Assembly: GCA_977017645.1 (NCBI GenBank)
Contig: OZ360242.1
Span: 16,368,001 to 16,432,000 of the forward strand
Reading direction: 5' to 3'
DNA from: Torpedo marmorata
Lineage: Eukaryota
DNA: 64,000 nucleotides
The number at the start of each line of letters is the position of its first letter. Positions within the stretch are counted from its first letter, which is position 1. The position numbers were made by a program, and so were the translations under genes. Below are positions 3,434 through 52,473 of this stretch, piece after piece. The notes under the pieces are model-generated. The model did not search any database and was not told where the DNA came from. It worked only from the letters and a program-made list of their open reading frames with translations.

Positions 3434-3676
3434 TGATAGGCCTATCAATGATTCCAGAGAGGCAAGAAGTAGTGCAGGAACAGAAGGCTTTTATTAGCTA
3501 TAAAAGAGCACGGCAGTTGACCTGCTGGGACCTGCTGATCTATCCCGGAATGAGGGCGGAGCAGTGGCACAAGGGCCTTTATTCGGGGTAGGAAGGGGAG
3601 GAGCAACCGGGACAGACAGCAGGACATGCCCAGACTTATCCTCAGCCCACAATACACATAACACTGGTTTACCACA
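3434..3676 (-). repeat. 3' LTR of element A
   Basis: Direct repeat of 7637-7879. Confidence 0.95.
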
Positions 3677-3786
3677 TTCACCCCTCCTTTTTAAAAAAGA
3701 GTCCAACGGGGTGACGTGGCCACTGTGGTTATCTTTACAAATACAAAGTGTAAAACAGATGTAAACGAATATATACATATATACAT

Positions 3787-6700
3787 TTACAGGTCGAGCC
3801 GATCAGGCGGTCGGATCCGCCGCTGCGACCTGCGCAGTACCCGTGGTGACGGGGCAGGCTGTGGTGATGGTGGCTGGGTTGTCTCCTGCCTGGCTTGCAG
3901 TACATCCGGCACCGGCGAGGGTGCTGGGGCTGTCGTGCTGGGAGAGGGGGGGGGCTGCGACAAGGGGTTTCCGTTGTCGAGGGCTTCTCCCGGCGCTCCT
4001 GCTGGCGCCAGGTCGCGTATCGATACGGTGTCTTCCCGCCCATCAGGGAAGACCACGTAGGCGTACTGGGGGTTAGCATGGGCTAACTGCACCCTCTGGA
4101 CCATGGGTTCGTATTTGCTACTCCGAAGGTGTCTGCGGGGCAGCACAGGTCCCGGGGACGTCAGCCAAGCAGGTAGGGTGGTTCCGGTGGTCGACTTCCT
4201 GGGGAAGGAGAAAAGTCGTTCGTGAGGGGTGGCATTAGTAGAAGTGCACAGCAGGGACCGGATGGAGTGGAGGGCCTCCGGGAGAACTTCCTGCCATCGG
4301 GAGACCGGCAACCCCTTTGACTTGAGGGCCAGGAGCGCGGCTTTCCAAACGGTGGCGTTCTCCCTTTCCACCTGTCCGTTGCCCCGTGGGTTGTACCCTG
4401 TGGTCCTACTAGTGGCGATGCCCCGGGCCTGCAGGTACTGTCGCAGCTCTTCGCTCATAAAAGCTGATCCCCGGTCGCTATGTATATAGCTGGGGAAGCC
4501 GAATAGTGTAAATACCTGGCGAAGAGCTTTAATGGCCGAGATGGCCGAGGTATCGGGGCAGGGAATGGCAAAGGGGAACCGCGAGTATTCGTCAATGATA
4601 TTGAGGAAATACACATTGTGGTCCGTGGAGGGAAGGGGGGCCTTGAAGTCGATGCCGAGACGTTCAAAAGGGCGGGTGGCTTTGACCAGCTGTGCCTTGT
4701 CGGGGCGGTAGAGCTGTGGTTTGCACTCCGCGCAGACCCGACAACTGCTGTTCATTGTCCTGACCTCTTCCAGGGAGTAGGGCAGGTTCCTGGCTTTCAC
4801 GAAGTGGAACAGCCTGGTAACTCCTGGGTGGCAGAGGTCACAGTGGAGGGAGTACAATCGGTCGATCTGCGCGCTGGCGCACGATCCCCGGGATAGAGCA
4901 TCGGAGGGCTCATTGACCTTCCCGGGCCGGTACAGGATATCGTAATTGTAGGTGGAGAGCTCTATTCTCCACCTCATGATCTTATCGTTTTTGATCTTAC
5001 CCCGCTGCTGGTTGTTAAACATAAACGCAACAGAGCGTTGATCCGTCAGCAGGGTAAAGTGCTTACCGGCGAGATAGTGCCTCCAGTGCCTAATAGCCTC
5101 CACTATGGCCTGGGCCTCTTTCTCAACCGCGGAGTGCCGAATTTCGGGGCCTTGGAGGGTCCGTGAGAAGAACGCCACCGGTCTTCCCGCCTGGTTGAGG
5201 GTAGCAGCCAGCGCGAAGTCCGATGCGTCACTCTCCACCTGGAAAGGTGTCGATTCATCCACCGCGTGCATTGCTGCTCGGGCAATGTCCCCTTTTATGA
5301 GGTCAAAAGCCTTACGTGCCTCCAATGGGAGGGGAAACGTGGTGGACTTGACAAGGGGTCGGGCTTTATCTGCGTAATTAGGGACCCACTGCGCATAGTA
5401 CGAGAAGAACCCGAGGCATCGTTTAAGGGCTTTGGGGGTGTGGGGAAGCGGAAGTTCCAGCAGGGGCCGCATGCGGTCGAGGTCGGGTCCAATAACCCCG
5501 TTCTCAACGACGCACCACAGAATAGCGAGTCGGGTGGTCCCGAACACGCATTTATCTTTGTTGTACGTGAGGTTTAGCGCCTTGGCCGCCTGCAGGAACC
5601 TCCGAAGGTTATTATCATGATCCTGGCGATCATGACCACATATGGTGATGTCGTCCAGGTATGGGAAGGTGGCTTTGAGCTTAAATTGGTCGACTATTCT
5701 GTACATCTCCCGCTGGAACACGGACACCCCATTTGTGACTCCGAAGGGGACGCGCAGGAAATGAAACAGCCTGCCGTCCGCCTCGAAAGCGGTGTACGTG
5801 CGGTCCTCCCGACGGATAGGGAGCTGGTGATAAGCTGACTTAAGGTCTATAGTCGAAAATAGCCTGTACTGGGCTATTTGATTCACCATATCCGCGATTC
5901 GTTGTAGCGGGTATGCGTCCAGTTGTTTGAATCGGTTGATTGTTTGACTATAGTCCACCACCATCCTGCTCTTGGCCCCGTTCTTTACCACGACTACTTG
6001 GGCTCTCCAGGGGCTATTACTCGGCTCGATGATCCCCTCCCCCAATAGTCGCTTCACCTCCGCCTTGATAAACGCTCTGTCCCCTGCACTGTATCGCCTG
6101 CTTTTAGTTGCCACGGGCTTACAGTCAGGGGTCAGGTTGGCGAATAGCGACGGGGGCGAGACCTTAAGTGTGGAGAGGCCACAGGTAGTCTGAGGCGTGT
6201 TGTTAAGGAACTGATGGTTAGCTACCGTGATTGCAGGGTGGGGCCCGTCGTAGCGCATCGTGACACTTTGTAGGTGACTCTGGAAGTCAAGTCCCAGTAG
6301 TACCGGCGCACACAAACGAGGCATGACAAGTAATGAAAAGTGCCGATATTCTGTGTCCTGTACTACAATGTTCGCCACACAACCCCCCCGGATGTCCGTT
6401 GTGTGCGACCCGGACTCCATGGCCACCCTCTGGCTTACCGGTACGGTAGTTAGGCCACAGCGCTGTACTGTGTCCGGGTGTATAAAGCTCTCCGTGCTGC
6501 CTGTATCGAACAGGCAGGTGGTCTTGTGCCCCTCAACCAGGATGTCCATCATGGATCGGGACAGCTGGTGGGGCGCACTCTGGTCGAGGGTGACGGATGC
6601 TAGGGTCGGGATGTAGTCTTGATCCGGCGCTGAAGAAGATGGCCGCCTCCGTGAGTCACACGTGTCGTGGCTGGAGCTGCAAGATGGCAGTGCCGGAAGT

Positions 6701-7614
6701 GCTGATGTGGAGCTGTAAGATGGCGGCGCCGGAAGTGCCGGTGTCCAAGATGGCCGCCTCCACTCCTCGCACGAGGTCGCAACCATGGGTGAATACGACG
6801 CCGGAAGTGACGGGAGGTAAGATGGCCGCTCAGAAATCTCACACGCGGCGCTGCTCGGACCCGCTCGCGGCTTAGAGCGGCAGGCCTTTGCGTAATGGCC
6901 TTTCTTGCCGCAGCTGGAGCAGGTCGCGTCTCGGGCCGGGCAGCGTTTGCGTGGGTGCTTCTCGAGCCCGCAGAAATAGCACTTCTCGGGCTCTCGGTTA
7001 ACGGCTGCGGCGGTGAGTTCACGGATGGTGGCAGCGGCGATCGGGTCGCGGCAGACGGCGGCGGCGGTCAGATCGCCGGCAGGGTTGGGGTTCGGGACTG
7101 TCCACGAGGCCGGCTGGAGGTCGCGCGCTTGCATAGCGTCAGAGTTCCGCAGCACGGCCTCCAGCGTGTGGGCGTGCTCCAGCAGCCGCTGGCGCACGTA
7201 TACCGACCTGATCCCCATGACGAATGTATCTCTCCCCAGCAGTTCCGCATGCTCCTCTGCCGTCAGCGCTTTGCAATCGCACGCCCGCACCAGCGACTGT
7301 ATATCTCGGACAAATTCGGTGATCGACTCCCCGGGCCGCTGCTGCCGCGTTGATAGCCTGTGCCTGTTCACGGGCGTTATGTATAGTCTTTTCAGGGCGT
7401 CCATACCCTCCACGTAAGTTTGACAATCCCGAATTGTCGAATATACCCGAGGGCTTACCCTGGACACGAGGACCGTTTGTTTTTCGTCCTCGTTTTCCAC
7501 TCTGATCGTCCTTAAGAAGGACTCAAAACAACGCAGCCAGTGTTCGAAAGCGTTACCGGCGTCTGGAGCTAGAGGATCGATGTCCAACTTATCCGGTCTC
7601 AGGACGCTCTCCAT
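3787..7614 (-). CDS. Gag-Pol polyprotein (two Zn knuckles, protease, RT, RNase H, integrase), 1275 aa, uninterrupted
   Basis: CYFCGLEKHPRKRC and CSSCGKKGHYAKAC knuckles; LFDTGS protease; YLDD RT; ESDASD RNase H; HxxxxH...CxxC and D-D-E integrase (IDFK, SDRG, VERE). Confidence 0.93.
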   Translation of the reverse strand: MESVLRPDKLDIDPLAPDAGNAFEHWLRCFESFLRTIRVENEDEKQTVLVSRVSPRVYSTIRDCQTYVEGMDALKRLYITPVNRHRLSTRQQRPGESITEFVRDIQSLVRACDCKALTAEEHAELLGRDTFVMGIRSVYVRQRLLEHAHTLEAVLRNSDAMQARDLQPASWTVPNPNPAGDLTAAAVCRDPIAAATIRELTAAAVNREPEKCYFCGLEKHPRKRCPARDATCSSCGKKGHYAKACRSKPRAGPSSAACEISERPSYLPSLPASYSPMVATSCEEWRRPSWTPALPAPPSYSSTSALPALPSCSSSHDTCDSRRRPSSSAPDQDYIPTLASVTLDQSAPHQLSRSMMDILVEGHKTTCLFDTGSTESFIHPDTVQRCGLTTVPVSQRVAMESGSHTTDIRGGCVANIVVQDTEYRHFSLLVMPRLCAPVLLGLDFQSHLQSVTMRYDGPHPAITVANHQFLNNTPQTTCGLSTLKVSPPSLFANLTPDCKPVATKSRRYSAGDRAFIKAEVKRLLGEGIIEPSNSPWRAQVVVVKNGAKSRMVVDYSQTINRFKQLDAYPLQRIADMVNQIAQYRLFSTIDLKSAYHQLPIRREDRTYTAFEADGRLFHFLRVPFGVTNGVSVFQREMYRIVDQFKLKATFPYLDDITICGHDRQDHDNNLRRFLQAAKALNLTYNKDKCVFGTTRLAILWCVVENGVIGPDLDRMRPLLELPLPHTPKALKRCLGFFSYYAQWVPNYADKARPLVKSTTFPLPLEARKAFDLIKGDIARAAMHAVDESTPFQVESDASDFALAATLNQAGRPVAFFSRTLQGPEIRHSAVEKEAQAIVEAIRHWRHYLAGKHFTLLTDQRSVAFMFNNQQRGKIKNDKIMRWRIELSTYNYDILYRPGKVNEPSDALSRGSCASAQIDRLYSLHCDLCHPGVTRLFHFVKARNLPYSLEEVRTMNSSCRVCAECKPQLYRPDKAQLVKATRPFERLGIDFKAPLPSTDHNVYFLNIIDEYSRFPFAIPCPDTSAISAIKALRQVFTLFGFPSYIHSDRGSAFMSEELRQYLQARGIATSRTTGYNPRGNGQVERENATVWKAALLALKSKGLPVSRWQEVLPEALHSIRSLLCTSTNATPHERLFSFPRKSTTGTTLPAWLTSPGPVLPRRHLRSSKYEPMVQRVQLAHANPQYAYVVFPDGREDTVSIRDLAPAGAPGEALDNGNPLSQPPPSPSTTAPAPSPVPDVLQARQETTQPPSPQPAPSPRVLRRSQRRIRPPDRLDL

Positions 7615-7636
7615 CAGATTATATAGCTAATAAAAT

Positions 7637-7879
7637 TGATAGGCATATCAATGATTCCAGAGAGGCGAGAAGTAGTGCAGGAACAGTAGGCTTTTATTAG
7701 CTATAAAAGAGCACGGCAGTTGACCTGCTGGGACCTGCTGATCTATCCCGGAATGAGGGCGGAGTAGTGGCACAAGGGCCTTTATTCGGGGTAGGAAGGG
7801 GAGGAGCAACCGGGACAGACAGCAGGACATGCCCAGACTTATCCTCAGCCCACAATACACAAAACAGTTGTTTACCACA
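7637..7879 (-). repeat. 5' LTR of element A
   Basis: Direct repeat of 3434-3676; gag ATG lies 22 nt downstream. Confidence 0.95.
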
Positions 7880-8680: not shown

Positions 8681-9848
8681 TGTTACAAACTAACAAACCT
8701 TGCTAGTACTAACAAATGAACAGCAATGGAAAATTCACCAGACAATGGTAAATTCAAAAATAGTTTTTATTTAAACTATTAATAACACAACATATCTTAC
8801 TTATATCTAAACTTAACTCTAACTTAAACCCCACTATGCGCAAATGTAAATGTGTGTGTGTTAAAGTCCAAACTATTTCAGTTTAAAGTTAATTCTGAAA
8901 AAATTGATTTTTTTTAAATTATTTTGTTTAAAATTTTTAAATCAAAAAATACACAAAATAAAATATGAAATTATCAAATACTTGTGATACATTTTCACCC
9001 CCCCTCCCTCCCTCCCCTCCCCAACCCTCCCAACCCCACTAATCTAATAAAATAATAAAAAGAAAGAGAAGAAAGAGAAAAGGATAAGGTAAGGAGAATG
9101 TCAATCTAATAAATACATCTATAAACTAATTCTATTATGGAGGTTAGGTAGCCAGTAGATCCAATGTCCAGAGATCTTCAAATCCTTAAGCCAACAGCTT
9201 TCATATAAGGGCTCCATATTTTTAAAAAGAAATGATATTTATTACGTAAATTATAAGTAATTTTTTCAAGTGGTATACACGAACGAAGTTCTGCATGCCA
9301 TCTTTCTAACCCTAAATCGAGATCAGATTTCCAAGTAATAGCAATACATTTCTTTGAAACAGCTAAAGCAATTCGCAGAAATTCTATTTGATACATATTT
9401 AATTTCACCTTATACTAAATTTTCTAATATCGCCAAACAAAAATATCATAGGATCCATTGGAAATGTAATCTTAAATACTTTATCTAAAAAATTTGTAAC
9501 TTTCTACCAAAAATCATAAACTTTTGGACAAAACCATGTAGAATGTACAAAAGAACCTTCCTCTTTATTACATCTAAAACATAAACCTGATAATGTCGGA
9601 TTAAATTTCTTATCTCAAGAACCATCATAAAATTTTTGCATCTCTAGCTTCATTTGCTCTGAGCAGACATTTGGTCTCTGAGATGATGTCAGCTGCCATG
9701 CACAAAGAATCTCTCTCTGTGTTTTTAAAATGCAAATGTGTTGTCTTTGTGTCCCTGAACCACCCAAACTAGCTTACTAAGCCATATCTAGATGAAATAT
9801 ATATTTTAACATTAAACTAAAGATGAATATTAACACAGATCCATTACA
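8681..9848. mobile_element. Solo LTR inserted in CR1, itself interrupted by an L1 3' fragment
   Basis: TGTTA...TTACA termini; 4-bp TSD CCTG (8677-8680, 9849-9852); CR1 sequence resumes right after. Confidence 0.65.
8907..9611 (-). mobile_element. L1-clade LINE 3' fragment (same family as 15697-18450)
   Basis: ORF 9178-9408 (KLNMYQIEFLRIALAVSKK...WSPYMKAVGLRI) is nearly identical to the reverse complement of about 17735-18430. A-rich tail at about 8907. Confidence 0.85.
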
Positions 9849-10726: not shown

Positions 10727-11275
10727 CAGGTGCCTAACCTTTTATCTGAAATTCCGAAAACCGAACATTTTTTCCAGTATATTTTCAGGTGTTTAGCTTA
10801 GTTTGAGCCAGTTAATGTTTGAAGATTTACTGTACGTTTTACTGAAAAATAAAAAGTATGCTAGTAATTTTATGGACTATCTTTATCTCACTTCATTTAC
10901 CACCCCCACTGCCCCCCCCGTCCAGCGCCACTGCGAACACCCCCGTCCAGCACCACCGCGAACACCCCCGTGCAGTGCCGCCGCGAACACTCCCGTCCAG
11001 CGCCGCCGCGAACACCCCCGTCCAGCGCCGCCGCAAACACCCCGTCCAGCGCCGCCGCAACCGCCCCCCACCATTCAGCGTCGCCGCAACCCCCCACCAT
11101 CCAACGCCGCCGTACAGAAACCCTTCTAGTTGGAGTGTGTCTTTGTTTTGCACGAATCTGAAGCAACGCAATTATTTTAAAGTACCGCCGTTAAAATAAT
11201 TCTATAATCCGAAAAAATCCAAATTCCGAAAAGTGTTCCGGTCCCAAGGTTTTCGGATAAAAGGTTAGGCACCTG
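10727..11275. mobile_element. Tc1/mariner (Tigger/pogo-like) MITE nested in the hAT element
   Basis: TIRs CAGGTGCCTAACCTTTTATC and GATAAAAGGTTAGGCACCTG; TA on both sides. Confidence 0.85.
10913..11113. repeat. GC-rich minisatellite, unit about 24-25 bp (CCCCCGTCCAGCGCCGCCGCGAACA), about 8 copies
   Basis: Tandem units visible directly inside the MITE. Confidence 0.85.
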
Positions 11276-12254
11276 TACTAATTACCACAATATTGTAGCT
11301 AAAACACCAGAAAATTTGACAAAAGCAGCGACTACAAAAACACCAGCAGCAATGAAAACAACAGCGCGTGCTTGTAGCACGTGCAGACGAAACCACGTGA
11401 TTCGAAGCGTCATTGTAATTGGGTAATAATGACAGTTCTGACTGGAGCACATTAGAAGGTTCAAAAAGTAAATTAGCATAAAGTTTTAGCCTTGTAGGTA
11501 TATTGATACATGTAAGCTGGGCTTACGAAAAAAAAATTTGTTGTTACAACTAACTACAGGGATATTTTTATAAAAAATAATAAATTTCTGCTGAAACACT
11601 GTACAAAAATTTTATAGACAGTAATTTTGGTGTCACCCCCTGATGGTGTCGCCCGGTGCGGTCTGCACCCCCCGCACCCCCCGAGTGACGCCAGTGATTT
11701 CTCACAGTGCAAATTGAGTTCCATTCCCTTTCTCACAGTGCAATTTCAGTTCCCTCCCCTATCTTTGTCCCCTATTACTATCTCCCCAACATCATTTTCC
11801 AGCGATCTAATGACCACCCTGGCCTCTCTTTTGCTCTTTATATATCTGAAAGAAAAAAAATTCAAATCGTCTTTTATGTTACATGGATGAGAGAGGTATG
11901 GAGGGCTATGGACTGGTTGCAGCTCAGTGGGACTAGGCAAAAAAAAATGGTTCTGCACAGACTAGAAGGGCCGAAGGGGCCTGTTTCTGTGCTGTAATGT
12001 TCTATGGTTCTATGTTACTAGCTAGCTTACCTTCGTAGTTCATCTATTCCCTTTTTATCACTTTTTTAGTTACCTACTGTTGGCTTTTCAAAGCATCCAT
12101 ATCCTCTGGCTTCTCACTAATTTTGCAATATTGTACGCTCTCTCTTCTGCTTTTATGGTGTCTTTGAATTCCCATGTCAGCCACAGTTGCCTCATCTTCC
12201 CTTCACAACACTACTTCATCCTTGAGATGCATTTGTCCTGTGCCTTCTGTGACC

Positions 12255-15200
12255 ACTAAGCCAGTCATTGATAAGTCAGAGAAAGACTCTGATATTTATC
12301 CGGCATGTGCCATAACCAGGGCCATGTCTAAGAAAAATGTCACTGTAGAGAAGGCAGTGGAAAATAACTTGCTGAAAGAAAAAGTAAGTGATAATCAAGA
12401 AAACCTGGAAAAGGTTGAGCAATCTCCTATGTTACACCCATCCACTGACAAGACACCTAAAGGCACAGATTTGTCACTATCCCGACAGGAGTTAATAGCA
12501 AGGCAAAAGGACGATCCTGATCTTGCTGAGGTGAGGGATAAGGTTCTCTCTGAAGAGGAGATTAAAAAGGTGCCAGTAGGTTATTATGAAAAAGATGGGG
12601 TGTTGATGAGAAAGTGGAGACCATGTGATGTTCCTGCCAATGAAGAATGGGCAGTAGTGCAGCAGGTTGTGATCCCTAAAGTATATAGGGATGCAATAAT
12701 AACTTTGGCTCATAGTACACCCTTAGGTGGTCATCTTGGGGTGAAGAAAACTATAAGGAAGATAACGAAACAATTTTATTGGCCCAGTTTGAGAAGGGAG
12801 GTTGTAAGGTTTTGCCGGGCCTGTCACACTTGTCAGGTGGTGGGTAAACCTAATCAGGATTCCCTGGTGGCACCCTTGCAACCTATCCCTGCTTTCAGTG
12901 AGCCTTTCTCGAGAGTAATTGTGGATTGTGTTGGCCCATTGCCCAAAACCAAAGCGGGGAATGAGTATTTGTTAACAATTATGTGTGCAGCCACCAGATT
13001 TCCAGAGGCCATTCCTCTGAGAAACATTAAAGCAAAGTCAATTGTAAAGGCTATGGTAAAGTTTTTCACCTTGGTAGGTTTGCCAAGGGAAATTCAATCA
13101 GATCAGGGCAGTAATTTCATGTCAGGCGTTTTCCAACAAGTGGTTGATGGACTAGGAGTTAAACAGATTGTATCCTCTGCGTTCCATCCAGAAAGTCAAG
13201 GGGCCTTGGAGAGGTTCCATTCGACTTTGAAAAACATGATTAGAACCTATTGTTGTGAAAAGGAAAAGGATTAGGATGAGGGGGTTCATTTGTTGTTATT
13301 TGCAGCGAGGGAGTCTGTCCAAGAATCACTTGGTTTTAGTCCATTTGAGTTAGTTTTCGGACATGAGGTGAGAGATCCTTTAAGATTATTAAAAGAACAG
13401 TGGATTAATCGTGATGTGCATTTAAATCTGTTAGATTATGTTTCCAAATTTAAGGATCGGTTACATAGGGCTTGTGAGATGGCAAAGGAGAATTTAAAGG
13501 CCACTCAACGGAGAATGAAGGTTTGGTATGATCGAAAGGCGAAGATGAGAACTTTTAAACCTGGTGAGAATGTATTAGTTCTGTTTCCCGTCCATTCAAA
13601 TCCTCTTAGGGCTAGATTTTCAGGACCCTATAGAGTTAAGGCAAAAATTAATGAGCTCACCTATGTCATAGAAACACCTAATCGCAGACGAGACACACAG
13701 GTCTGTCATGTGAATATGATTAAGCCATATTTTGAACAGGTGCCACACAAAGAGACTGAACATTTACCAGAGGTACTGGTTATTGACAGGGGTAAGGAGG
13801 AGACAGATAAAACCAGTTTCAGAGAGGGTCATGGGACTGTTACTTCTCGGGGTTATGTAGTAGGACAGGGGAAGTTGGCGCCAGTAGAGGCAAAGGTTGT
13901 GACTATTTCCGAGTTCCCTGTTCCAACTGGTAAAAAAACTCTGAGGAGGTTCCTGGGAATGATTGGCTACTACCGCAAGTTCTGTAAAAACTTTGCTGAT
14001 CTTGCGCTCCCTCTCACAAATTTGCTTAGAAAGAAAGAAAAATTTGTATGGTCAACAAGTTGTCAGGAAGCATTTGTCAAATTGAAAACCATGTTATGCC
14101 ACCAACCTGTGCTTAAGTCACCTAATTTAGAACAGCCGTTTTCTTTAGCAGTGGATGAAGCTGTGGGTGCGGTGCTGTTACAGAAGAAGAACGAAGAGGA
14201 CATTGACCATCCGGTATCCTACTTCTCAAAGAAGTTCAATGATCATCAAAGGAATTATTCAACCATAGAAAAAGAGTTGTTGGCTCTACAACACTTTGAA
14301 GTGTATATCTGTACAGCTCAAAAACCACTCATAGTGTACACTGACCATAACCATAAGAATCGACGGTTGTTGAATTGGAGTCTAATTTTGCAAGAATATA
14401 ATTTGATAATCACACATATAAAAGGGAAAGATAATGTAATTGCTGATTGTCTTTCTAGATGTAAAACTTTATCAATGAAAATAGTTCATATTTTGTATTT
14501 GTGGATGAACATTGTAGATTTTGTTTATATTGTGACACCTCAATTACTTTCCAAAATTTTGTTCTTGCAGACCAAAATTTTCTTTGTGGGTGGGAGGTGT
14601 TATGGACCATGACTGACCATTGGGACTGCGGACGGTCAGCAGGAAGGATGAAGTATTTTGGAGTATACACTGGGGCCAGGTACTGAAAGAGTTAACTTGC
14701 CCAGGACTTGGTGTACCCAGAGAGAGAGAGAGAGCAGAGAGAGACAGACTGTGGAAAAGATACATTGTTGCACTTTTGCAAAAGCAGGTGCAGACCTCTG
14801 CAAAAAGCAGACAGTTGGGAGTTGCAAAGGCTAGAGAACACAGCCAAATCCAGGCTTGTGCATCCCAGAGAAAAGACTGGCAGGATAGCACATGGCCTCC
14901 TGTCTCAGAGAAATTCTGAGGTAAAGCAACTTCTGTGGAGAACAGGCGAGAGATCAGCGAGACTAGCTGTGAGATCCAAGCACACGCCTTAATCAGTGGT
15001 ATACTGATCTGAACTCGCAATCCTTATGAAAACACAAGAAGGGAACGTCATCAGAGAAGAAAAACAAGTATTTGTAAGCATAAACAGTCATTGTCTCTCT
15101 CCAACGTTCATTTAGAAGTACTTCTACCAGACACAGAGCTGAATTTGAAACCTGAACTTAGAGAGTGAATTTTGTGGACTGTATTATTCTTTTTTTTGAC

Positions 15201-15696: not shown

Positions 15697-18450
15697 AAAA
15701 TTAATTGAGAAAACAAAACAAAGATATTATGAATTAGGGGAAAGAGCCCATAAGGTTTTGGCATGGCAATTGAAAAAAGAACAAGTTTCTAAAACTAAAA
15801 ATGCTATAAGGAAGAAAAATACTGGAGAAATAACTTATAAACCTCAAGAGATAAATGAATGAATCTTTTAAAGATTATTATCAGAATTTATATAAATCGC
15901 AGATTGATCAAGACGATTCTAAAATTAATAGATTCCTATCCAAAATCACACTACCTAAATTGAACATTCAGAGTAGAGATTCTTTAGATTTGCCTTTTAC
16001 AATGAGGGAAGTTAGTGAAGTTTTTTCTTCGCTGAAGAGTGGTAAATCTCCGGGTGATGACGGGTTTCCATCAGAATTTTATAAAGAATTTAAAGATTTA
16101 TTAATACCTCCATATATGGAAGTACTAGGTTCTCTCTGAAGAGGAGATTAAAAAGGTGCCAGTGGGTTATTATGAAAAAGATGGGGTGTTGATGAGAAAG
16201 TGGAGACCATGTGATGTTCCTGCCAATGAAGAATGGGCAGTAGTGCAGCAGGTTGCGATCCCTAAAGTATATAGGGATGCAATAATAACTTTGGCTTATA
16301 GTACACCCTTAGGTGGTCACCTTGGGGGTGAAGAAAACTATAAGGAAGATAATTAAACAATTTTGTTGGCCCAGTTTAAGAAGGGAGGTTGTAAATTTAA
16401 AGATTTATTGATACCTCCATATATCCTAAGATAGTGGGTATTAAAGTTGGTATGGAAGAACATAAGATTAGTTTGTTTGCAGATGATGTATTGATATATA
16501 TGACAAAATCTATTACATCACTTCAACAACTATCTAACATATTAAGAGAGTATGGTGAAATATCTGGATATAAAATTAATTCTGATAAAAGTGAAATAAT
16601 GGCTTTATCTCAAGGTGATTATACTAGATGTAAAGAAATTACACAATTTAAATGGGCTAAAGAAGGAATTAAATATTTGGGAGTTAAGGTTGATACAAAA
16701 TTGGAAAATTTATATAAATTAAATTATCTACCATTATTTGTGAAAATAAAGAAAGATTTAGAGAATTGGAAAGATTTACCCATAACTTTAATGGGAAGAG
16801 TAAATTGTATTAAAATGAATATTTTTCCAAGAATTCAGTATCTTTTTCAATCAATTCCTTTTGGAATTCCTCAAAAAATTTTTAAAGATTTAAATTTTAT
16901 TATTAGGAAATTTTTATGGAAGGGAAAGTTAGCAAGAGTAAGTATGGAAAAATTAACTTGGAATTATGAGATGGGTGGATTGTAACTTCCTAATTTTCAA
17001 AATTATTATAAAGCATCTCAATTAAAATTTGTTAATGAATTTTTTGATTCAACTAAATCTTCTGCTTGGATTAAAATAGAATTAAATAATATAGGAGAAG
17101 ATTTTAAAGAAGAAATTATTTATAAATGGGATTCTAAATTAATATCAATAAAAAAGAAAAATTCACCAATTATTAAACATTTGTTGGAAATATGGGGTAA
17201 GACGGATAAAGAAATAGGTGGAAAAGGATTGATTTCTTCAAATACGCCATTATATCAAAATGGACTTATACCATTTACTGTTAATAATCAGTTACTTAAA
17301 ATTTGGTTTCAAAAAGGTATTAAGAAGATTAGTGATTGTTTTGAAGCTGGAAAATTTATTACGTTTCAAAGAATGAAAGATAAATTTAATATATTAGATA
17401 ATACATGTTTAGCTTATTATCAAGTTAAAGCTTTTTTGACTGAGAAATTAGGTTATGCTTTGATTTTACCGAGACAAAATGAGTTAGAATTATTAGTTAC
17501 TAATGGAGATGTCAATAAATTCATTTCTCAAATGTATAAATTGTTTCAGAGAAAAATGCCTAAAATAGGATTGCATAAATCAAGATTAAAATGGGAATTA
17601 GATTTAAATGTAAATATAGATGAAAATCATTGGAAAGATTTATGTAAGTTAAGTATGACGAAGATTATCAATGTTAGATATAGACTAGTACAATATAATT
17701 TTTTTCATCAATTATACTTAACACCTAAAAAACTAAAGAAATTTAATCCGACATTATCAGGCTTATGTTTTATATGTAATAGAGAGGAAGGTTATTTTGT
17801 TCATTCTACATGGTTTTGTCCAAAAATTCAAGATTTTTGGCTGAAAGTTAAATTTTTTTTAGATAAAGTATTTAAGATTACATTTCCAATGGATCCTATG
17901 TTATTTTTATTTGGAGATAATAAAAAATTTAGTATTAAGAAGAAATTAAATATGTATCAAGTAGAATTTTTGCGAATTGCTTTAGCTGTTTCAAAAAATG
18001 CATTGCTATTACTTAGAAATCTGATTTAGATTTAGGATTAGAAAGATGGCATGCAGAACTTCGTTCGTGTATACCACTTGAAAAAATTACTTATAATTTA
18101 CGTAATAAATATCATTTTTTTTTGAAAATTTGGAGCCCATATATGAGAGCCGTGGGTTTAAGGATTTGAAGATCTCTGGTTATCGGATCTGCTGGCATAT
18201 TTGACCTCCATAATTTAGAAGGTATTCCCCTTATTCTATTCTTTTCTTTCTTTCTTTTTTCTATTTTACTTTAAATTTTTATTTTTATATTATTTTTTTT
18301 TTTATTAGATTAGTGGGGATGGGGGGGTTGGGGAGGGGAGGGATGGTGGAGGGGTGAAAATGTATCACATGTATTTTGATAATTTTATATCTTATCTCGT
18401 GTATTTTGTGATTTAAAATTTTAAATAAAATAAAAAAAAAATAAAATAAA
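15697..18450 (+). mobile_element. 5'-truncated L1-clade LINE (ORF2 pseudogene) with an internal foreign insert
   Basis: YYELGERAHKVLAWQL, KSPGDDGF, ISLFADD, IKYLGV and C-terminal Cys motif; A-rich tail; TSD up to 19 bp ATAAAATAAAATGTTTCTT (15678-15696, 18451-18469). Confidence 0.88.
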
Positions 18451-21000: not shown

Positions 21001-24000
21001 TGTGGCAGCTCACCCACGTGGTAGGCGAACTGGCTCCAGCAGTCGCGGGCAAGTCCGCAGCCAGCGGCATTCACGGGGACTCTCAGTGCGGGGCAAAGCC
21101 GCGGCCCAGAAGCCGACATCACTTCCGCCCCGCCGGGCGCTAAGGTCGCTGGGTCAGGCGCGGGGTTTTAAGCGCGCGATTTTGAATTAGTAAATCAGTT
21201 GCTCTGAAGCTCTGCTCGACTCAGCGTGTTTCTTTCGCTCACAGTGGCACAGCAGCCACATTGGTGACCCCGACGGTCCAACGGCATTTGGACCCGACAC
21301 GAACGACTCCATCGACATGGACAACACGGACGACTCGATTCTTCAAAACGCAGTTTCGCTTAAACTGCCAACTTTCTGGACCACTCAGCCCCTCGTCTGG
21401 TTTCAACAAGCAGAGGCCCAGTTCCAGGTCAGGAACGTTGTCTCCGATGAGACCAGATACTACTACGTGGTGGCTGCGCTTGACCAGAAAACGGCGGGCC
21501 GAGTAATGGACTTTCTGCAACAGCCCCTGGAGGCCAACAGGTATGCAGCACTCAAGGCCCTGTTGGTCGGCATATTCAGCCTCTCACGCCGTGAACGGGC
21601 CGCGCGGTTGCTGCATATGGACGGCCTAGGCGACCGCGCACCGTCAGCCCTGATGAGTGATATGCTGGCACTAGCAGACTACCATAAGCCGTGTCTACTT
21701 TTCGAACAGATCTTTTTGGAGCAGATGCTGGAGGACATCCGCATCCTACCAGCAAATGAGGATTTCTCCGACCCTCGAAAGGTGGCCGCTCACGCGGATG
21801 TTCTTTGTCGTGCCAAATGAGAAGGCAGAACCAGCATCGTGATTAGTGCTGCGTCACGACCGAAGTCCCAGCCACACCGTACACCAGCAGCAAAACCTGC
21901 AACGCCCACGCCAAGAGACGACACCAGTTCCGAGTCTTGGTGTTTTTACCATCAAAGGTGGGGATCCGGGGCCTGCTGATGCCGACCGCCATGCTTGTTC
22001 CAGGGAAACGAAAGGGCCAGCCGTCGCTGATGGCTATGGCGGCTGGCCACCATGATAGCCTCCTGTACATCTGGGACAGACACTCCGGGCACAGATTCCT
22101 GGTGGACACGGGAGCGGAAATCAGTGTCTTTCCCCCCTCGAGCCACGATACCAGAACCAGAGGGGCCAGACCGGAGCTCACGGCGGCCAACGGCAGCACC
22201 ATCCGCACCTACGGCACGCAGACTACCCCCTTTCAATTCGGTTCCAGCCGATTCACATGGACGTTTACGCTGGCCACGGTGTCACAGCCATTGCTGGGTG
22301 CAGACTTCCTCCGCGCGCACTGTTTGCTCGTGGATCTGAAGGGACGACGGCTGGTCGACGCAAAGACATTCCAAACTTTCCCCCTCAGTGAGGCCAAATT
22401 GCCGGCTCCGCACCTAGATTCCGTCACTTGTTCGGACAACGTGTTTGCCAGGGTGTTGTCGGAGTTTCCATCCGTCATCACGCCGCAGTTTTCCACAGCA
22501 GCCCCCAACCACGGCGTGATGCACCACATTCCCACACAGGGACACTCCCTGCACGCCCGGACCCGCAGGCTACCACCAGACAAGCTCCGACTCACGAGGG
22601 AGGAGTTTAACAAGATAGAGGAGATGGGGATCGTGCAGCGTTCTGACAGCCCATGGGCCTCCCCGCTCCATATGGTGCCCAAGTCCGCGGGAGGATGGAG
22701 GCCGTGTGGTGACTACAGGAGGCTGAATGATGCAACCATCTCCGATAGATATCCAGTCCCGCACATCCAAGACTTCACGGCCAACCTGCACGGGGCATGC
22801 ATCTTTTAAAAAATTGAAGTCCCAGTCCACCCAGATGATATTCCAAAGACGGCCATCATTACCCCATTCGGCCTGTTCAAATTCCTCAGGGTGCCGTTCG
22901 GCTTAAAAAACCCAGCACAGACCTTCCAGCGCCTCATGGATGCAGTAGGGAGGAACCTGGACTTTCTGTGCATCTACCTAGATGACATCCTGGTAGCCAG
23001 CCACTCCCGCCAGAAACATCTGGCACATCTGCGCCTGCTCTGCTGCCACCTCAGTGACTATGGCCTGTCGATCAACATCGCCAAGTGCCAGTTCGGCCAA
23101 CCCACCATCGACTTCTTGGGACACCAGATCGACCGTCACGGAGCCGTCCCCCTGCCGACGAAAGTGGAAGCCATTCGCCAGGCCCAACACAGTCAAAGGC
23201 GTCGGTTATGTATTTCTATCTTTGCTACATAAAAGACACTGTTTGACCTGCTGAGTTCTCCAGCTTTTGTGTTTTTTACAGTCAAAGGCCTGCAGGAATT
23301 TGTCAGGATGGTTAACTTTTACCACCGGTTCATTCCCTCAGCGGCCCGGATCACGTGCCCCCTTTTCGGCTTGATGTCCGGCAAAGCCAAAGAAGTTGCC
23401 TGGACGGAAGAGGCGATGGAAGCTTTCGACCAGGCCAAGAACGCTCTAGCCAATGCCACGCTCCTGGTCCACCCCTGAGTAGACGTCCCCACGGTCCTCA
23501 CTGTGGACGCCTCCGAAGCGGCAGTCGGCGGCGTGCTTGAACAGTTAATTGAAGGCCAATGGAAACCGCTTGCTTTCTTCAGCCGGTACCTGCGACCCCC
23601 AGAGATCAAGTACAGCGCGTTCGACAGAGAGCTGCTGGCCCTGTACCTGGCCATTCGGCACTTCATGTACTTCCTGGAAGGGATGAAGTTCAGGATCTTC
23701 ACACAGTAGGGAGGAAGAGACGTTTACCATAGACCGTCTCAAACCGGCACACCTGGACATTGAACGACCAGTCGTGGTGCCACCCGCTAGGAAACGAGGC
23801 CAACCACGTAAAACGGACTGTGTACAGGTTACGGTTTCTGCGCCTCCTATCGCCGGTTCTGGGGGGGGGGGGTGTCATGTGGCGGCTCACCCACGCGTCA
23901 GGCGAACTGGCTCCAGCAGTCGCGGGCAAGTCTGCAGCCAGCGGCATTTACGGGGACTCTCAGTGCGAGGCAAAGCCACGGCCCGGAAGCCAACGTCACT

Positions 24001-24137
24001 TCCGCCCCGCCGGGCGCTAAGGTCGCTGGGATAGGCGCGGGGTTTTAAACGCGCGATTTTGAATTAGTATATCAGTTGCTCTGAAGCTCTGCTCAACTCA
24101 GCGTGTTTCTTTTGTTCACAGTGGCACAGCAGCCACA
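21001..24137 (+). mobile_element. CsRn1-like Ty3/Gypsy LTR retrotransposon, degenerate (integrase largely deleted)
   Basis: 260-bp LTRs at 21001-21260 and 23878-24137; TSD CGCT; PBS TGGTGACCCCGACG (tRNA-Trp complement); poly-G PPT; gag AVSLKLPTFW, protease FLVDTGAE, RT YLDD, RNase H DASEAAVG with stops and deletions. Confidence 0.92.
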
Positions 24138-27197: not shown

Positions 27198-30100
27198 TGA
27201 TGTACCTATCAATGACAGATGCGAGTCTAGAAGTGCAGGAATTAATAGGCTTTTAATACCAGAATCAAGGCCAGGGCTAAGCTACACCTTGACCTGGTGA
27301 TCCCTGCTGGATTGTCCCGGAACTGAGGGAGGAGTCAATGGCTCAAGGCCTTTATTCCAGGGAAAGGGGGGAGGAGTCACCGGGACAGACAGACAGGTCA
27401 TGGTCATACTTGCCTCAGGCCACAATACCTATATACATACTAAAAGTGGTTTACCACATTCACCCCTTCTTTTAGAACAAGTCCGACGGGGGGGGGGGGG
27501 GTGAAGTGGATACCATAATATTAAAGAAAAGAACAAATAAACATAGATTATTTACATAGTCTCTACAAGTCGAGTCTAACCGGCGGCCGGATTCGCCGCC
27601 GTGACCTGCGTAGTACCAGCGGTGATGGTAGTGGTTGTGGAATGAGGGTACGTGATGCCTGCGGAGATGGTTGTGGTTGTGGAACGGGAGTAGGTATAGT
27701 AGGGTGGATCTGGGTTTGGTTCGCCTCCTGCCTGGCTTGTGGCCTTTCCAGCTGCGGCTGGGGCGTTGTACCCGCCGTGCTGGGAGGCGGATGGGCCGGA
27801 GGGGGCAGCTGCGACCCGGCGTTCCCGCTGTCGGGGACCTCCTCTGACGCTCCTGCAGGCGCCAGGTCCCGTATGGACACCGTGTCTTCCCGTCCGTCAG
27901 GGAAAACCACGAATGCGTACTGCGGGTTCGCATGGATCAGCTGCACCCTCTCGACCAAGGGCTCGTACTTGCTACTCCGAAGATGTTTGCGGAGTAGCAC
28001 CGGCCCTGGGGACGTCAGCCAGGCAGGGAGGGTGGTCCCAGTGGTCGATTTTCTGGGGAAGGAAAAGAGACGTTCGTGAGGGGTAGCGTTAGTGGCAGTA
28101 CACAAAAGGGATCGTATGGAGTGGAGGGCGTCCGGGAGAACCTCCTGCCAGCGAGCCACTGGCCACCCTTTTGCTTTCAGGGCCAGTAGTGTAGCTGTCC
28201 ATACCGTGGCGTTCTCCCTCTCCACCTGTCCGTTCCCCCGTGGGTTGTACCCCGTGGTCCTACTGGTGGCGATGCCTCGGGTCTGCAAATGCTGTCGCAG
28301 CTCCTCGCTCATGAACGCGGATCCCCGGTCGCTATGGACATAGCTGGGGAACCCGAACAAGGTGAATACCTGGTGGAGGGCCTTGATAGCCGACGCCGCC
28401 GAGGTATCTGGGCAGGGGATGGCAAAGGGGAACCGCGAGTACTCATCGATGATGTTGAGGAAGTACACATTGCGGTTCGTGGAGGGAAGGGGGCCCTTGA
28501 AGTCTGTACTGAGACTTTCGAACGGGCGGGTGGCCTTGACCAGCTGTGCTTTGTCGGGGCGGTAGTACTGCGGTTTGCATTCCGCACAGACTCGGCAGCT
28601 GCTGGTCATGGTTCTGACCTCATCCAGGGAGAAAGGCAGGTTCCGTGCTTTAATGAAGTGGAACAGCCTGGTGACTCCTGGGTGGCAGAGGTCGTTGTGT
28701 AGGGAGTATAACCGGTCGATCTGCGCGCTGGCGCACGATCCCCGGGATAGAGCGTCAGGGGGCTCGTTGAGCTTCCCGGGCCGGTACATGATGTCGTAAT
28801 TATAGGTGGAGAGTTCTATTCTCCACCTCATGATTTTGTCATTCTTGATTTTACCCCGCTGCTGGCTGTTAAACATGAATGCGACGGAGCGCTGGTCCGT
28901 CAGCAGGGTAAAATGTTTTCCGGCGAGATAGTGCCTCCAATGCCGAACAGCCTCGACAATGGCCTGGGCCTCTTTCTCTACCGCGGAGTGCCGAATTTCG
29001 GGGCCTTGAAGGGTGCGGGAGAAAAACGCTACCGGCCTTCCCGCCTGGTTGAGGGTAGCAGCCAGTGCGAAGTCCGAGGTGTCACTCTCCACCTGAAAAG
29101 GTTCCGACTCGTCCACCGCGTGCATCGCTGCTCGGGCGATGTCCCCTTTTATGAGGTCGAAAGCCTCACGTGCCTCCGCTGCAAGGGGAAACTTGGTGGA
29201 CTTGACGAGGGGTCGGGCTTTGTCCGCGTAGTTTGGGACCCACTGCGCATAATACGAAAAAAACCCGAGGCATCGTTTAAGTGCTTTGGGGGTAACGGGG
29301 ATCGGAAGTTCCAACAGGGGGCGCATGCGGTCGGGGTCGGGTCCAATCACCCCGTTTTCCACGACGCACCCCAGGATAGCGAGTCGGGTAGTCCCGAACA
29401 CGCATTTCTCCTTGTTATAAGTGAGGTTCAGCGTCTCGGCTGCCTGCAGGAACTTCCGAAGGTTCCTATCGTGATCCTGGCGATCATGACCACAAATGGT
29501 GATGTCGTCCAGGTACGGGAAGGTGGCAGTGAGCTTGAACTGGTCAATGATCCTGTCCATCTCCCGTTGGAACACGGATACCCCATTTGTTACCCCGAAG
29601 GGGACGCGCAGAAAATGAAATAATCTGCCGTCCGCCTCGAAAGCGGTGTACACTCGGTCCTCCCGGCGAATCGGGAGCTGATGGTAAGCCGACTTTAGGT
29701 CGATAGTGGAGAATACTTTATACTGCGCAATCTGGTTGACCATATCCGCGATTCTTGGCAGCGGATAGACGTCCAGTTGCGTGAACCGGTTGATGGTCTG
29801 GCTATAGTCCACCACCATCCGGCTCTTAGCCCCGTTCTTCACCACGACTACCTGTGCTCTCCAGGGGCTGTTACTGGGTGCAATGATCCCTTCCTCCAGT
29901 AAACGCTGCACCTCCGCCTTAATGAATGCCCTGTCCCCTGCACTGTATCGCCTACTTTTAGTTGCAATGGGCTTACAGTCAGGGGTCAGGTTGGCGAAGA
30001 GTGGCGGGGGTTGGGTCTTCAGCGTGGAGAGACCACAGGTAGTCTGGGGCGTATTATTCACGTATTGGGGGTTTGCCACTACGATCGGGGGGTGGGGCCC

Positions 30101-31955
30101 ATCATAGTGCATGGTGACGCTACGCAGGTGGCTTTGGAAGTCCAATCCCAGCAATACAGGAGCACACAAACGGGGCATGACCATCAATGAAAACTCCCGA
30201 TATTCCGTGCCCTGTACCACTATATTCGCCACACAACCCCCCCGGATGTCTGTTGTGTGCGTTCCAGATGCCATGGCCACCCTCTGGCTTACCGGTACAA
30301 TGGTGAGGCCACAGCGCTGGGCAGTGTCTGGGTGTATAAAACTTTCGGTACTGCTTGTGTTGAACAGGCAGGTGGTCTTATGCCCCTCAACTAGTATGTC
30401 CATCATTGATCTGGACAGTTGATGGGGCGCGTTCTGGTCCAGCGTCACGGATGCCAGGGTCGGGACGAAGTCTTGGTCCGACGAGTCGTCTTGATCCGAT
30501 GGCAGCTCCCGTAGCGCACACGTGTCGCTACAAGATGGCGGCGCCGGAAGTGCTGGCACAGCCGCGGCGAGGTTGTAAAATGGCCGCGCCGGAAATGTAG
30601 AAACCGGAAGTGCAGACCAAGATGGCCGCCTCCATTCCTCGCACGAGGTCTCCGCCAGAAGTGACGTCAGGTAAGATGGCCGCTCCCCCACTTCGCATGC
30701 GGCGCTGCTCGAAACCGGAAGTGCTGCGCGCCGAGATGGCCGCCTCCATTCCTCGCACGAGGTCTCCGCCGGAAGTGACGTCAGGTAAGATGGCCGCTCC
30801 CTTACTTCGCACGCGGCGCTGCTCGGACCCGTACGCGACTTGGAGCGGCAGGCCTTAGCATAGTGGCCTTTCTTGCCACAGCTAGAACAAGTCGCGTCTC
30901 GGGCCGGGCAGCGCTTGCGCGGGTGTTTGTCGAGCCCGCAGAAGTAGCACTTCTCGGGCTCCCGGGTGACAGCGGCAGCGGTTAACTCACGGGTGGCGGC
31001 GGGCTCTCGGGCAGCGGCGGCAACGGCCAACTCACGGATAGCATCGGCGGCGGTGATCGGGTCCCGGTAGACGGCAGCGGCCGTCGCGTTGCTTGCAGGG
31101 CTGGCGGTTGGGGCGATCCAAGAGGCAGGCTGCGTCTGCATAGCGTCAGCGTTCTTGAGCGCCGATTCCAGCGTGAGGATATTCCGGACGGTAGATTTCA
31201 GGGTCAGGTCGGCGTGTTCCAGCAATCGCTGGCGAATGTAACCCGACCTGATCCCCATAATGATAGTGTCCCTTGCCAGTATTTCGGCGTGTTGCTCGGC
31301 CGTCAGGGCTCGACAATCGCACGCCCGCACCAGGAGCATCACGTCCTGGATATATTCAGAGATCGACTCTCCGGGTCGCTGGTACCGTTGCGATAACCGG
31401 TGCCTCGCGAAAACCTCGTTCACCGGCGTCAGGTACAGCCTTCGGAGGGCTTCCAAGGCATCCTCATAGGTATCACAGTCTCTGACAGCGCCATACACTC
31501 GTTTGCTTACTCTGGACATGAGGATGTCGAGTCTATGCTCGTTGGTAGCCGCTCCGGTCGACCTCAGGAAGGCTATGAAGCAGCGCAGCCAGAGTTCAAA
31601 GTCACTTGCAGCGTCTTGGGCCAGGGGGTCGATGTCCAGCTTATCCGGCCTCAGAAAATTCTCCATCGGATTTTCTTGGAACTGGTATTAAAATTGATGT
31701 ACCTATCAATGACAGACGCGAGTCTAGAAGTGCAGGAATTAATAGGCTTTTAATACCAGAATCAAGGCCAGGGCTAAGCTACACCTTGACCTGGTGATCC
31801 CTGCTGGATTGTCCCGGAACTGAGGGAGGAGTCAATGGCTCAAGGCCTTTATTCCAGGGAAAGGGGGGAGGAGTCACCGGGACAGACAGACAGGTCATGG
31901 TCATACTTGCCTCAGGCCACAATACCTATATACATACTAAAAGTGGTTTACCACA
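27198..31955 (-). mobile_element. Full-length Ty3/Gypsy LTR retrotransposon (Mag-like), element B, related to element A
   Basis: 261-bp LTRs at 27198-27458 and 31695-31955 (1 mismatch seen); TSD CGGCA at 27193-27197 and 31956-31960; PPT; single ORF. Confidence 0.96.
27563..31666 (-). CDS. Gag-Pol polyprotein, 1367 aa, uninterrupted; protease active site reads LFNTSS
   Basis: Same domain order and motifs as 3787-7614; YLDD intact; 38-aa tandem duplication in the gag-protease linker. Confidence 0.93.
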   Translation of the reverse strand: MENFLRPDKLDIDPLAQDAASDFELWLRCFIAFLRSTGAATNEHRLDILMSRVSKRVYGAVRDCDTYEDALEALRRLYLTPVNEVFARHRLSQRYQRPGESISEYIQDVMLLVRACDCRALTAEQHAEILARDTIIMGIRSGYIRQRLLEHADLTLKSTVRNILTLESALKNADAMQTQPASWIAPTASPASNATAAAVYRDPITAADAIRELAVAAAAREPAATRELTAAAVTREPEKCYFCGLDKHPRKRCPARDATCSSCGKKGHYAKACRSKSRTGPSSAACEVRERPSYLTSLPAETSCEEWRRPSRRAALPVSSSAACEVGERPSYLTSLLAETSCEEWRRPSWSALPVSTFPARPFYNLAAAVPALPAPPSCSDTCALRELPSDQDDSSDQDFVPTLASVTLDQNAPHQLSRSMMDILVEGHKTTCLFNTSSTESFIHPDTAQRCGLTIVPVSQRVAMASGTHTTDIRGGCVANIVVQGTEYREFSLMVMPRLCAPVLLGLDFQSHLRSVTMHYDGPHPPIVVANPQYVNNTPQTTCGLSTLKTQPPPLFANLTPDCKPIATKSRRYSAGDRAFIKAEVQRLLEEGIIAPSNSPWRAQVVVVKNGAKSRMVVDYSQTINRFTQLDVYPLPRIADMVNQIAQYKVFSTIDLKSAYHQLPIRREDRVYTAFEADGRLFHFLRVPFGVTNGVSVFQREMDRIIDQFKLTATFPYLDDITICGHDRQDHDRNLRKFLQAAETLNLTYNKEKCVFGTTRLAILGCVVENGVIGPDPDRMRPLLELPIPVTPKALKRCLGFFSYYAQWVPNYADKARPLVKSTKFPLAAEAREAFDLIKGDIARAAMHAVDESEPFQVESDTSDFALAATLNQAGRPVAFFSRTLQGPEIRHSAVEKEAQAIVEAVRHWRHYLAGKHFTLLTDQRSVAFMFNSQQRGKIKNDKIMRWRIELSTYNYDIMYRPGKLNEPPDALSRGSCASAQIDRLYSLHNDLCHPGVTRLFHFIKARNLPFSLDEVRTMTSSCRVCAECKPQYYRPDKAQLVKATRPFESLSTDFKGPLPSTNRNVYFLNIIDEYSRFPFAIPCPDTSAASAIKALHQVFTLFGFPSYVHSDRGSAFMSEELRQHLQTRGIATSRTTGYNPRGNGQVERENATVWTATLLALKAKGWPVARWQEVLPDALHSIRSLLCTATNATPHERLFSFPRKSTTGTTLPAWLTSPGPVLLRKHLRSSKYEPLVERVQLIHANPQYAFVVFPDGREDTVSIRDLAPAGASEEVPDSGNAGSQLPPPAHPPPSTAGTTPQPQLERPQARQEANQTQIHPTIPTPVPQPQPSPQASRTLIPQPLPSPLVLRRSRRRIRPPVRLDL

Positions 31956-52435: not shown

Positions 52436-52473
52436 GTCAAGCGTTTTACAAAGTCAATCAGAAGGCTACAAAG

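Follow-up and report, generated by a model that had tools for sequence, protein, structure and literature searches.

In the mouse LINE-1 (L1) subfamily Tf, tandem monomers bearing YY1 sites are reported to activate transcription synergistically and in the sense direction, the motif being written GCCATCTT in the monomer consensus (PMC11602158), and young mouse L1 subtypes showed enrichment of YY1 or GABPA in chromatin immunoprecipitation upon methylation loss, as described in PMC11602158 and PMC7605266. Enhancers within coding regions were described for HIV-1 pol (AP-1, Sp1 and PU.1) and HTLV-1 tax (SRF/ELK-1), where they support transcription from the long terminal repeat (LTR); the tax enhancer relies on an ETS factor and also increases antisense output, according to PMC12846392. 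In host genomes, antisense promoters inside Pcdh-alpha coding exons are reported to activate the sense promoter (10.1101/360206), and convergent promoters to be co-regulated and able to activate an upstream promoter (PMC11735407). Moreover, a composite of an ETS site and a cAMP response element (CRE) in mammalian housekeeping promoters is described as bound by GABPA and CREB (PMC3464117), with an overlap spacing exact for cooperative DNA binding (PMC4555227), and YY1, ETS and CREB motifs are stated to favour ubiquitous expression (10.1101/2023.06.27.546584). In the present study, a stretch of 64,000 nucleotides from Torpedo marmorata (assembly GCA_977017645.1, contig OZ360242.1, positions 16,368,001 to 16,432,000, hereafter the window) was analyzed, in which the linker between nucleocapsid and protease of a Ty3/gypsy LTR retrotransposon (element A), and likewise that of a sister element (element B), carries an array of candidate YY1, ETS and CRE sites within coding DNA.

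With the L1 Tf monomers the array shares tandem units, each carrying a YY1 motif of the GCCATCTT type in the same orientation to the element RNA (PMC11602158, PMC7605266). In contrast, L1 monomers are untranslated and are themselves the promoter, whereas the units observed here are short, in frame and translated and are interleaved with ETS and CRE sites. They do not stand at the 5' end of the RNA of their LTR element but 0.8–0.9 kb further in (counted from the 5' LTR, 811 bp in A and 901 bp in B). The array would thus resemble L1 Tf monomers in its way of working without belonging to that class. As in HIV-1 pol and HTLV-1 tax (PMC12846392), candidate host factor sites occupy coding DNA, and in the array they are conserved beyond protein need; the array can be likened in its presumed action to a retroviral intragenic enhancer. 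However, the retroviral sites overlay ordinary protein domains, whereas the gypsy coding segment itself has apparently grown by amplification of sites for housekeeping factors. Ty1 activating sequences in TYA and the avian retrovirus gag enhancer are further enhancers of 5' coding regions; they are not tandem and involve different factors. The likeness to Pcdh-alpha and to convergent promoters consists in promoter-like sequence in coding DNA that faces an upstream promoter (10.1101/360206, PMC11735407); those are host genes, CTCF-based in Pcdh, for which antisense RNA was shown, whereas here such RNA is a prediction. The mammalian ETS-CRE composite recurs as an exact 11-mer (CGGAAGTGACG) in A and as an exact 15-mer (CCGGAAGTGACGTCA, 30769-30783) in B, the latter with seven occurrences in a table of PMC3464117; there it is known from host proximal promoters, whereas here it stands in the open reading frame (ORF) of a mobile element and is followed by YY1. 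A coding spacer seemingly built by site amplification and common to sharks and rays sets the array apart from these systems, and no earlier description of it was found in the open-access literature searched.

The explanation preferred here, with a probability of roughly 0.55, is that the linker is in essence a cis-regulatory array, translated incidentally, which would act as an internal, housekeeping-type activator supporting LTR transcription. Five matches to the YY1 motif AAGATGGC and three to the ETS motif CCGGAAGTG were found on the plus strand, opposite the ORF 7626..3787 (Table 1). Their number, strand and positions agree exactly with a first-pass annotation prepared from the letters of the window, which had placed them in a coding linker ahead of the protease; the stretch corresponds to Gag-Pol residues ~250-340, which separate the second zinc knuckle from the protease. 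Across the window, 14 matches to AAGATGGC compare with 2.48 expected and seven to CCGGAAGTG with 0.36, and neither observed count was reached in any of 100 shuffles. All seven CCGGAAGTG matches fall within the linkers of A and B. Furthermore, the densest 250-bp segments for housekeeping motifs were the B array (12 hits) and the A array (9), followed by a segment with 5. An intact GCCAT core, as defined for the YY1 site in PMC11602158, followed by (C/T)TT was present in all five cores of A and in five of the seven of B.

Beyond what the first-pass annotation had recorded, the motifs of A were found to sit in diverged tandem units (repeat families D6/D14/D20), a composite of an ETS site and a half CRE was recognized at 6801 and an E-box at 6659, and a homologous array, likewise made of diverged tandem units and including full CRE sites, was located in B. 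Variant forms occur in B at 30577 (AAAATGGC) and 30589 (CCGGAAATG). One B unit has two residues changed to Phe, with both motifs kept in alternative forms. The L>F change gives CCGGAAATG, a form tolerated by ETS factors, and AAGATGG is the sense-strand form of the YY1 site. The S>F change gives an AAAATGG form, which matches GCCGCCATTTTG as quoted in PMC11602158.

Protein-fixed codon resampling (20,000 draws, elements' own codon usage) yielded far fewer motifs than observed. In A, five YY1 motifs were seen against 0.025 expected and three ETS motifs against 0.009; in B, the values were 4 against 0.020 (YY1), 4 against 0.015 (ETS) and 2 against 0.020 (CRE). The strict motifs are absent from the rest of both ORFs, and a relaxed ETS pattern matched three times in pol of A. 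The codons used by the motifs are rare outside the linkers (TCT for 10 of 161 Ser, CCA for 30 of 184 Pro, CTT for 22 of 228 Leu). Within the linkers, CCA TCT encodes 5 of 7 Pro-Ser pairs in either element as compared to 0/10 and 1/6 outside, and Leu-Pro is written CTT CCG in 3/5 and 4/5 linker cases versus 1/10 and 1/9 elsewhere. These values support a constraint on the motifs as DNA, not demanded by the amino acids; the proviso of the first-pass annotation that required amino acids might account for the motifs did not apply.

The second proviso, absence from the family, likewise did not apply, as the motifs appear to be common to shark and ray members. The best named homologues of the element came from Hypanus, Mobula, Hemitrygon, Narcine, Scyliorhinus and Mustelus, consistent with a cartilaginous fish as host. 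Family-wide tests used proteins only. The spacer between knuckle and protease measures 81-289 residues in elasmobranch and window members as compared to 43-64 in named invertebrate relatives. A YY1 peptide footprint was found in 20 of 21 parsed elasmobranch and window linkers (23 given), in none of 14 parsed invertebrate relatives (15 given) and in 6 of 146 other short spacers. De-duplication of 39 linkers left 20, of which two were mis-cut and include gag; in this set, Pro-Ser is followed by F, L, S, Y, C or W, all with codons starting in T, in 58 of 70 cases (46/56 without A and B; 38/50 without Ser), whereas the controls gave 31% in 5,000 shuffles, 14/44 in the rest of the same proteins and 279/774 in 244 other relatives. 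Read off-frame, the window motif encodes GHL/RHL and AIL/AIF. Among 14 proteins, hand-picked after their sequences had been seen, the words GHL/RHL/AIF occurred 14 times in eight shifted-frame gene models (background 0.26% per residue; one of the 14 hits is perhaps a different sequence); the other six lack off-frame words, several of them being in frame. Sources were Hypanus, Hemitrygon, two Scyliorhinus species and one further source. For stingrays and catsharks, the off-frame and in-frame readings taken together are interpreted as fixing the codons as G CCA TCT T, and off-frame Hypanus tails (P0092 with its in-frame paralogues) imply, by deduction, a CGTCA half CRE at the position seen in A and B. 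Protein identity among these families is just 34-59%.

Two trees were calculated from hand-picked rows with midpoint rooting, the first retaining the linker columns and the second without them. In the FastTree of 41 rows with the linker removed, all 16 long-linker rows lie on one side of a branch with support 99; the long-linker members may have a single origin, which is compatible with this tree and unproven without a root. Screening of viral contigs gave no match to a 21-nt pattern designed for relatives' DNA, viral and prokaryote collections yielded no confirmed relative, and 39 metagenome loci were distant, none with a motif cluster opposite the ORF. Catshark linkers P0004 and P0144 contain (I/H/Y/C)VTSG repeats corresponding to the window's ETS-half-CRE site in another frame, which could represent ETS-half-CRE or full CRE sites. 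The Narcine protein P0008 has a 289-residue linker with a different Ala/Thr repeat and without the YY1 footprint.

These comparisons bear on the view that the array has no regulatory role and arose by amplification of either a unit selected as peptide (C-D/E-x-W-x-R/P-P-S) or a neutral repeat prone to slippage, the motif match being inherited from the chance codons of a single ancestral unit. The units are indeed tandem duplicates whose number varies among copies, Cys-Asp/Glu-x-Trp recurs across species and loosely resembles the invertebrate 'SAA-x-W-x-P-TLA' spacer, and long linkers without the footprint exist (P0187, P0249, P0008). However, diverged units and the families mentioned above retain rare codons, the residues that follow Pro-Ser differ in chemistry (W, C, L, Y, S) yet share a possible first base, and three different motifs match, among them the 15-mer tabulated in PMC3464117. 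An array devoid of regulatory function is therefore considered improbable.

Element A is an ordinary Ty3/gypsy LTR retrotransposon with TG...CA LTRs differing at 7 of 243 positions, a 5-bp target-site duplication (CTATC) and a 3' purine tract; it may resemble the Mag group of gypsy clades, for which the literature searched gave no diagnostic feature. Its domain order is protease, reverse transcriptase (RT; Ty3-like), RNase H and integrase, without env; a distance of 110 bp separates the end of the ORF from the 3' LTR, and the best match of the polyprotein is Ty3 Gag-Pol (E 7.7e-60). In B, the LTRs (261 bp) differ at one position and the target duplication is TGCCG. Between A and B, amino acid identity in pol is ~90%, and four-fold sites are identical at 270/393 positions in pol and 36/64 in gag. 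The suggestion of the first-pass annotation that the array compensates for a very short LTR was not borne out: 243 bp falls within the training-set LTR lengths of 174-330 listed for four animal gypsy clades in Table 1 of PMC3601003. The LTRs of A and B contain no YY1, CCGGAAG or CRE-half motif, apart from one isolated GCCAT in the B LTR, and no canonical TATA was found in the 5' LTR of A. LTRs devoid of these motifs fit an internal activator. Moreover, an LTR element replicates solely from LTR-initiated RNA, and a DNA feature kept by a clade would therefore most simply raise that RNA.

According to the proposed scenario, a short YY1-bearing unit would have multiplied, with the reading frame preserved, early in the shark/ray branch, the spacer between nucleocapsid and protease being tolerant of such growth; CRE-half and ETS sites would have been added in sub-lineages. 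In a new, unmethylated insertion, binding of the ubiquitous host factors YY1, GABP/ELK-type ETS and CREB/ATF to the array would create an open, promoter-like patch 0.8–0.9 kb downstream of the 5' LTR. The opened patch would raise LTR-initiated genomic RNA, so that the array would be selected in cis; some local initiation would be expected, likely biased antisense toward the LTR. The locus would then represent a natural case of dual coding, in which a DNA motif appears to dictate the peptide and leaves a footprint legible across sharks and rays. It may also answer how an LTR lineage stays active in a CpG-depleted vertebrate genome, its invertebrate relatives having a plain 45-residue spacer, and inserted arrays could serve as portable housekeeping promoters or enhancers in a high-copy family (31,620 matching contigs in one run).

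Several points weigh against an internal activator. The array copies descend from tandem duplication, and the motif sites in A are not independent because diverged tandem units carry them; the fair figure is accordingly the per-array chance of at least one site, which in A, counted as one event, is just p ~0.025 for YY1 and ~0.009 for ETS, for motifs selected after having been seen. B alone adds modest, weak independent support, A and B being close. For other species, codons were deduced from protein frames, and ETS sites are established in the window's family only. Among the relatives, the footprint is missing from Narcine P0008 and P0061 and occurs a single time in Mustelus P0117. Next to the motifs of copy A, differences of the CpG-decay type were observed (6658, 6703, 6841), and the array thus does not fully protect against methylation. 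Finally, YY1 is reported to be directional, to favour promoters over enhancers and to act just downstream of start sites, behaviour more in line with a promoter than with an enhancer alone. The DNA constraint is real and, for YY1, family-wide; from it a regulatory function is inferred.

The directionality of YY1 favours the proposal that the array is primarily an antisense promoter. Starting at the ETS-CRE-YY1 units, RNA would cross gag in the direction of the 5' LTR, with one of two effects: the LTR would be licensed (by a convergent, demethylating promoter) or the element limited (by interference or as a source of small RNA). On the plus strand, the last unit reads ETS, CRE, YY1, which is the order of a compact promoter. 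The sole AG/GTRAG matches of A and B lie in the array on this strand (in A, the only one on either strand), and a polyA-type hexamer directly precedes the 5' LTR at 7629 (A) and 31687 (B); Pcdh-alpha (10.1101/360206) and convergent promoters (PMC11735407) provide precedents. The hexamer, however, follows automatically from an LTR-complementary stretch described below, and the donor needs a Tyr codon, found after just 5 of 70 Pro-Ser cases. The first-pass annotation had offered an internal enhancer or an antisense promoter: the DNA-level constraint and the motif-free LTRs agree with regulation of this kind, but the orientation does not force antisense output, as mouse L1 Tf has the same orientation and is reported to drive sense RNA. 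An array acting chiefly as an antisense promoter thus remains a tentative and rather unlikely alternative, which can merge with the internal activator because convergent promoters are reported to activate an upstream promoter. A more far-reaching version, regarded as distinctly doubtful, holds that an invertebrate-type gypsy lineage entering vertebrates built a complete housekeeping promoter from its gag-pol linker (ETS-CRE-YY1, own splice donor, polyA signal at the LTR edge), which fires antisense and keeps the 5' LTR unmethylated and active; the linker peptide would then be a by-product and unit number would tune activity.

All ATGs of the YY1 motifs fall in one antisense frame, and 78-codon ORFs are present on the plus strand at 6639-6875 (A) and 30622-30858 (B). 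An antisense protein was rejected, as the ATG-started 78-aa frame shares neither its end nor its upstream extent between A and B, which also speaks against the antisense promoter; the ORFs are probably a by-product of in-frame units.

Placed before the protease, the array could also be a sense internal promoter for a pol-only RNA, comparable to an L1 monomer array. The orientation equals that reported for Tf monomers, an in-frame Met pair occurs near the protease start in batoid members, and several gene models start at a linker Met. The Met is absent, however, in several catshark and other members, and the gene-model starts may stem from upstream frameshifts. Moreover, it is Gag and not Pol that an element with a single ORF requires in excess, and a pol-only promoter is judged very improbable. 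Models named PSTPIP1a, CFAP53, MTMR9-like and PRKRIP1 (P0124, P0139, P0176 and P0117; from Hypanus, Scyliorhinus and Mustelus) contain the element's linker or gag, three of them beginning at a Met inside the linker; they are possibly element-driven host isoforms or annotation artefacts. Stingray models P0007, P0032, P0094, P0099, P0101, P0105 and P0100 exit the element after HFAK at the second zinc knuckle, and this shared exit suggests a sense splice donor directly before the linker.

A constraint acting on RNA or unintegrated DNA (structure, packaging, ribosome pausing, or YY1 recruitment for integration or silencing) is regarded as the least probable of the explanations considered, although rare codons cluster in the linker and YY1 has roles in retroviral integration and silencing. 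Shuffled sequences folded as well as the sense RNA (z 0.60 and 0.31), and an Rfam scan of element A gave no match; RNA structure as the source of constraint was rejected on these grounds. The overlap of ETS and CRE at the exact cooperative-binding spacing given in PMC4555227 would also be left unexplained.

Contigs of three sequencing runs cover the linker, with joints that skip or repeat 42-79 bases, which shows that unit number varies among copies. In a loose end formed by 30 contigs at 6745, CCGGAAGTG is retained within a spacer that differs. The ratio of observed to expected CpG is ~1 in A and B versus 0.2-0.5 in much of the window; it was not counted as evidence because young insertions show it anyway. 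An AP-1-like TGAGTCA at 6652 was rejected, as position 6658 is G in most contig depth. The CGCAYGCG module may be an NRF1 site; its strict core occurs once in B.

Table 1. Coordinates of the motif array, the elements that carry it and the LTR-complementary stretches (positions within the window).
Feature	Position	Strand	Remarks
Candidate YY1 site 1	6636..6646	+	AAGATGGCCGC
E-box CACGTG	6659..6664	.	inside CpG-rich module of uncertain identity
Candidate YY1 site 2	6681..6688	+	AAGATGGCAG, weaker 3' flank
Candidate ETS site 1	6693..6701	+	
Candidate YY1 site 3	6717..6727	+	AAGATGGCGGC, full consensus
Candidate ETS site 2	6729..6737	+	
Candidate YY1 site 4	6747..6757	+	AAGATGGCCGC
Candidate ETS site 3 overlapping half CRE	6801..6812	+	ETS-CRE 11-mer CGGAAGTGACG at 6802-6812, as in PMC3464117
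AG/GTAAGA donor-like match	6814..6822	+	antisense direction, overlaps YY1 site 5
Candidate YY1 site 5	6819..6829	+	AAGATGGCCGC
Expanded nucleocapsid-protease linker of A	6607..6879	-	~91 codons, diverged tandem units; contains motif array
Element A	3434-7879	-	single-ORF Ty3/gypsy LTR retrotransposon
5' LTR of A	7637..7879	-	243 bp, TG...CA; AATAAA at LTR positions 94 and 182
3' LTR of A	3434..3676	-	preceded by purine tract
gag-PR-RT-RNaseH-IN single open frame of A	3787..7626	-	1279 aa (P0001)
Stretch directly after 5' LTR of A	7622-7635	-	14 nt, perfect pairing with LTR polyA-signal region 7692-7705, around AATAAA
Sister element B	27198-31955	-	ORF 31687..27563, 1374 aa
B array	30499..30830	+	7 ATGGC cores, 5 ETS sites and 1 decayed, 2 full CRE
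Equivalent stretch of B	31682-31693	-	12 nt, perfect pairing with 31748-31759, around ATTAAA

Directly after the 5' LTR of A, no primer-binding site with a tRNA-type TGG start was found; the LTR-complementary stretch stands there, and changes on both arms were observed between A and B. This stretch may serve either Tf1-like self-priming, as known for LTR elements from PMC4600332, or masking of the 5' polyA signal.

Further mobile elements were observed in the window. An endogenous retrovirus-like element at 50912-58895 on the minus strand has 260-bp LTRs with 99% identity; several frames share its coding regions for zinc knuckle, retroviral protease, RT, RNase H and integrase. At 21001-24137 on the plus strand, an LTR element encodes a DUF7041 gag with a weak protease match and no RT in the two frames scanned; unlike in A and B, its LTR itself contains ETS, CRE-half and Sp motifs. 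The element at 12168-14612 (plus strand) carries integrase ahead of RNase H, a Gmr1-like order, together with a 201-nt direct repeat (12541, 16127) without TG...CA ends, and is flanked by long inverted repeats (8976-9611 and 17736-18376). A Myb/SANT-like ORF is located at 20-616 on the minus strand; such ORFs occur in Harbinger-type transposons. Finally, a CpG-rich array of 25-bp tandem repeats occupies 10915-11112, and two E-boxes stand after it (11378 and 11394).

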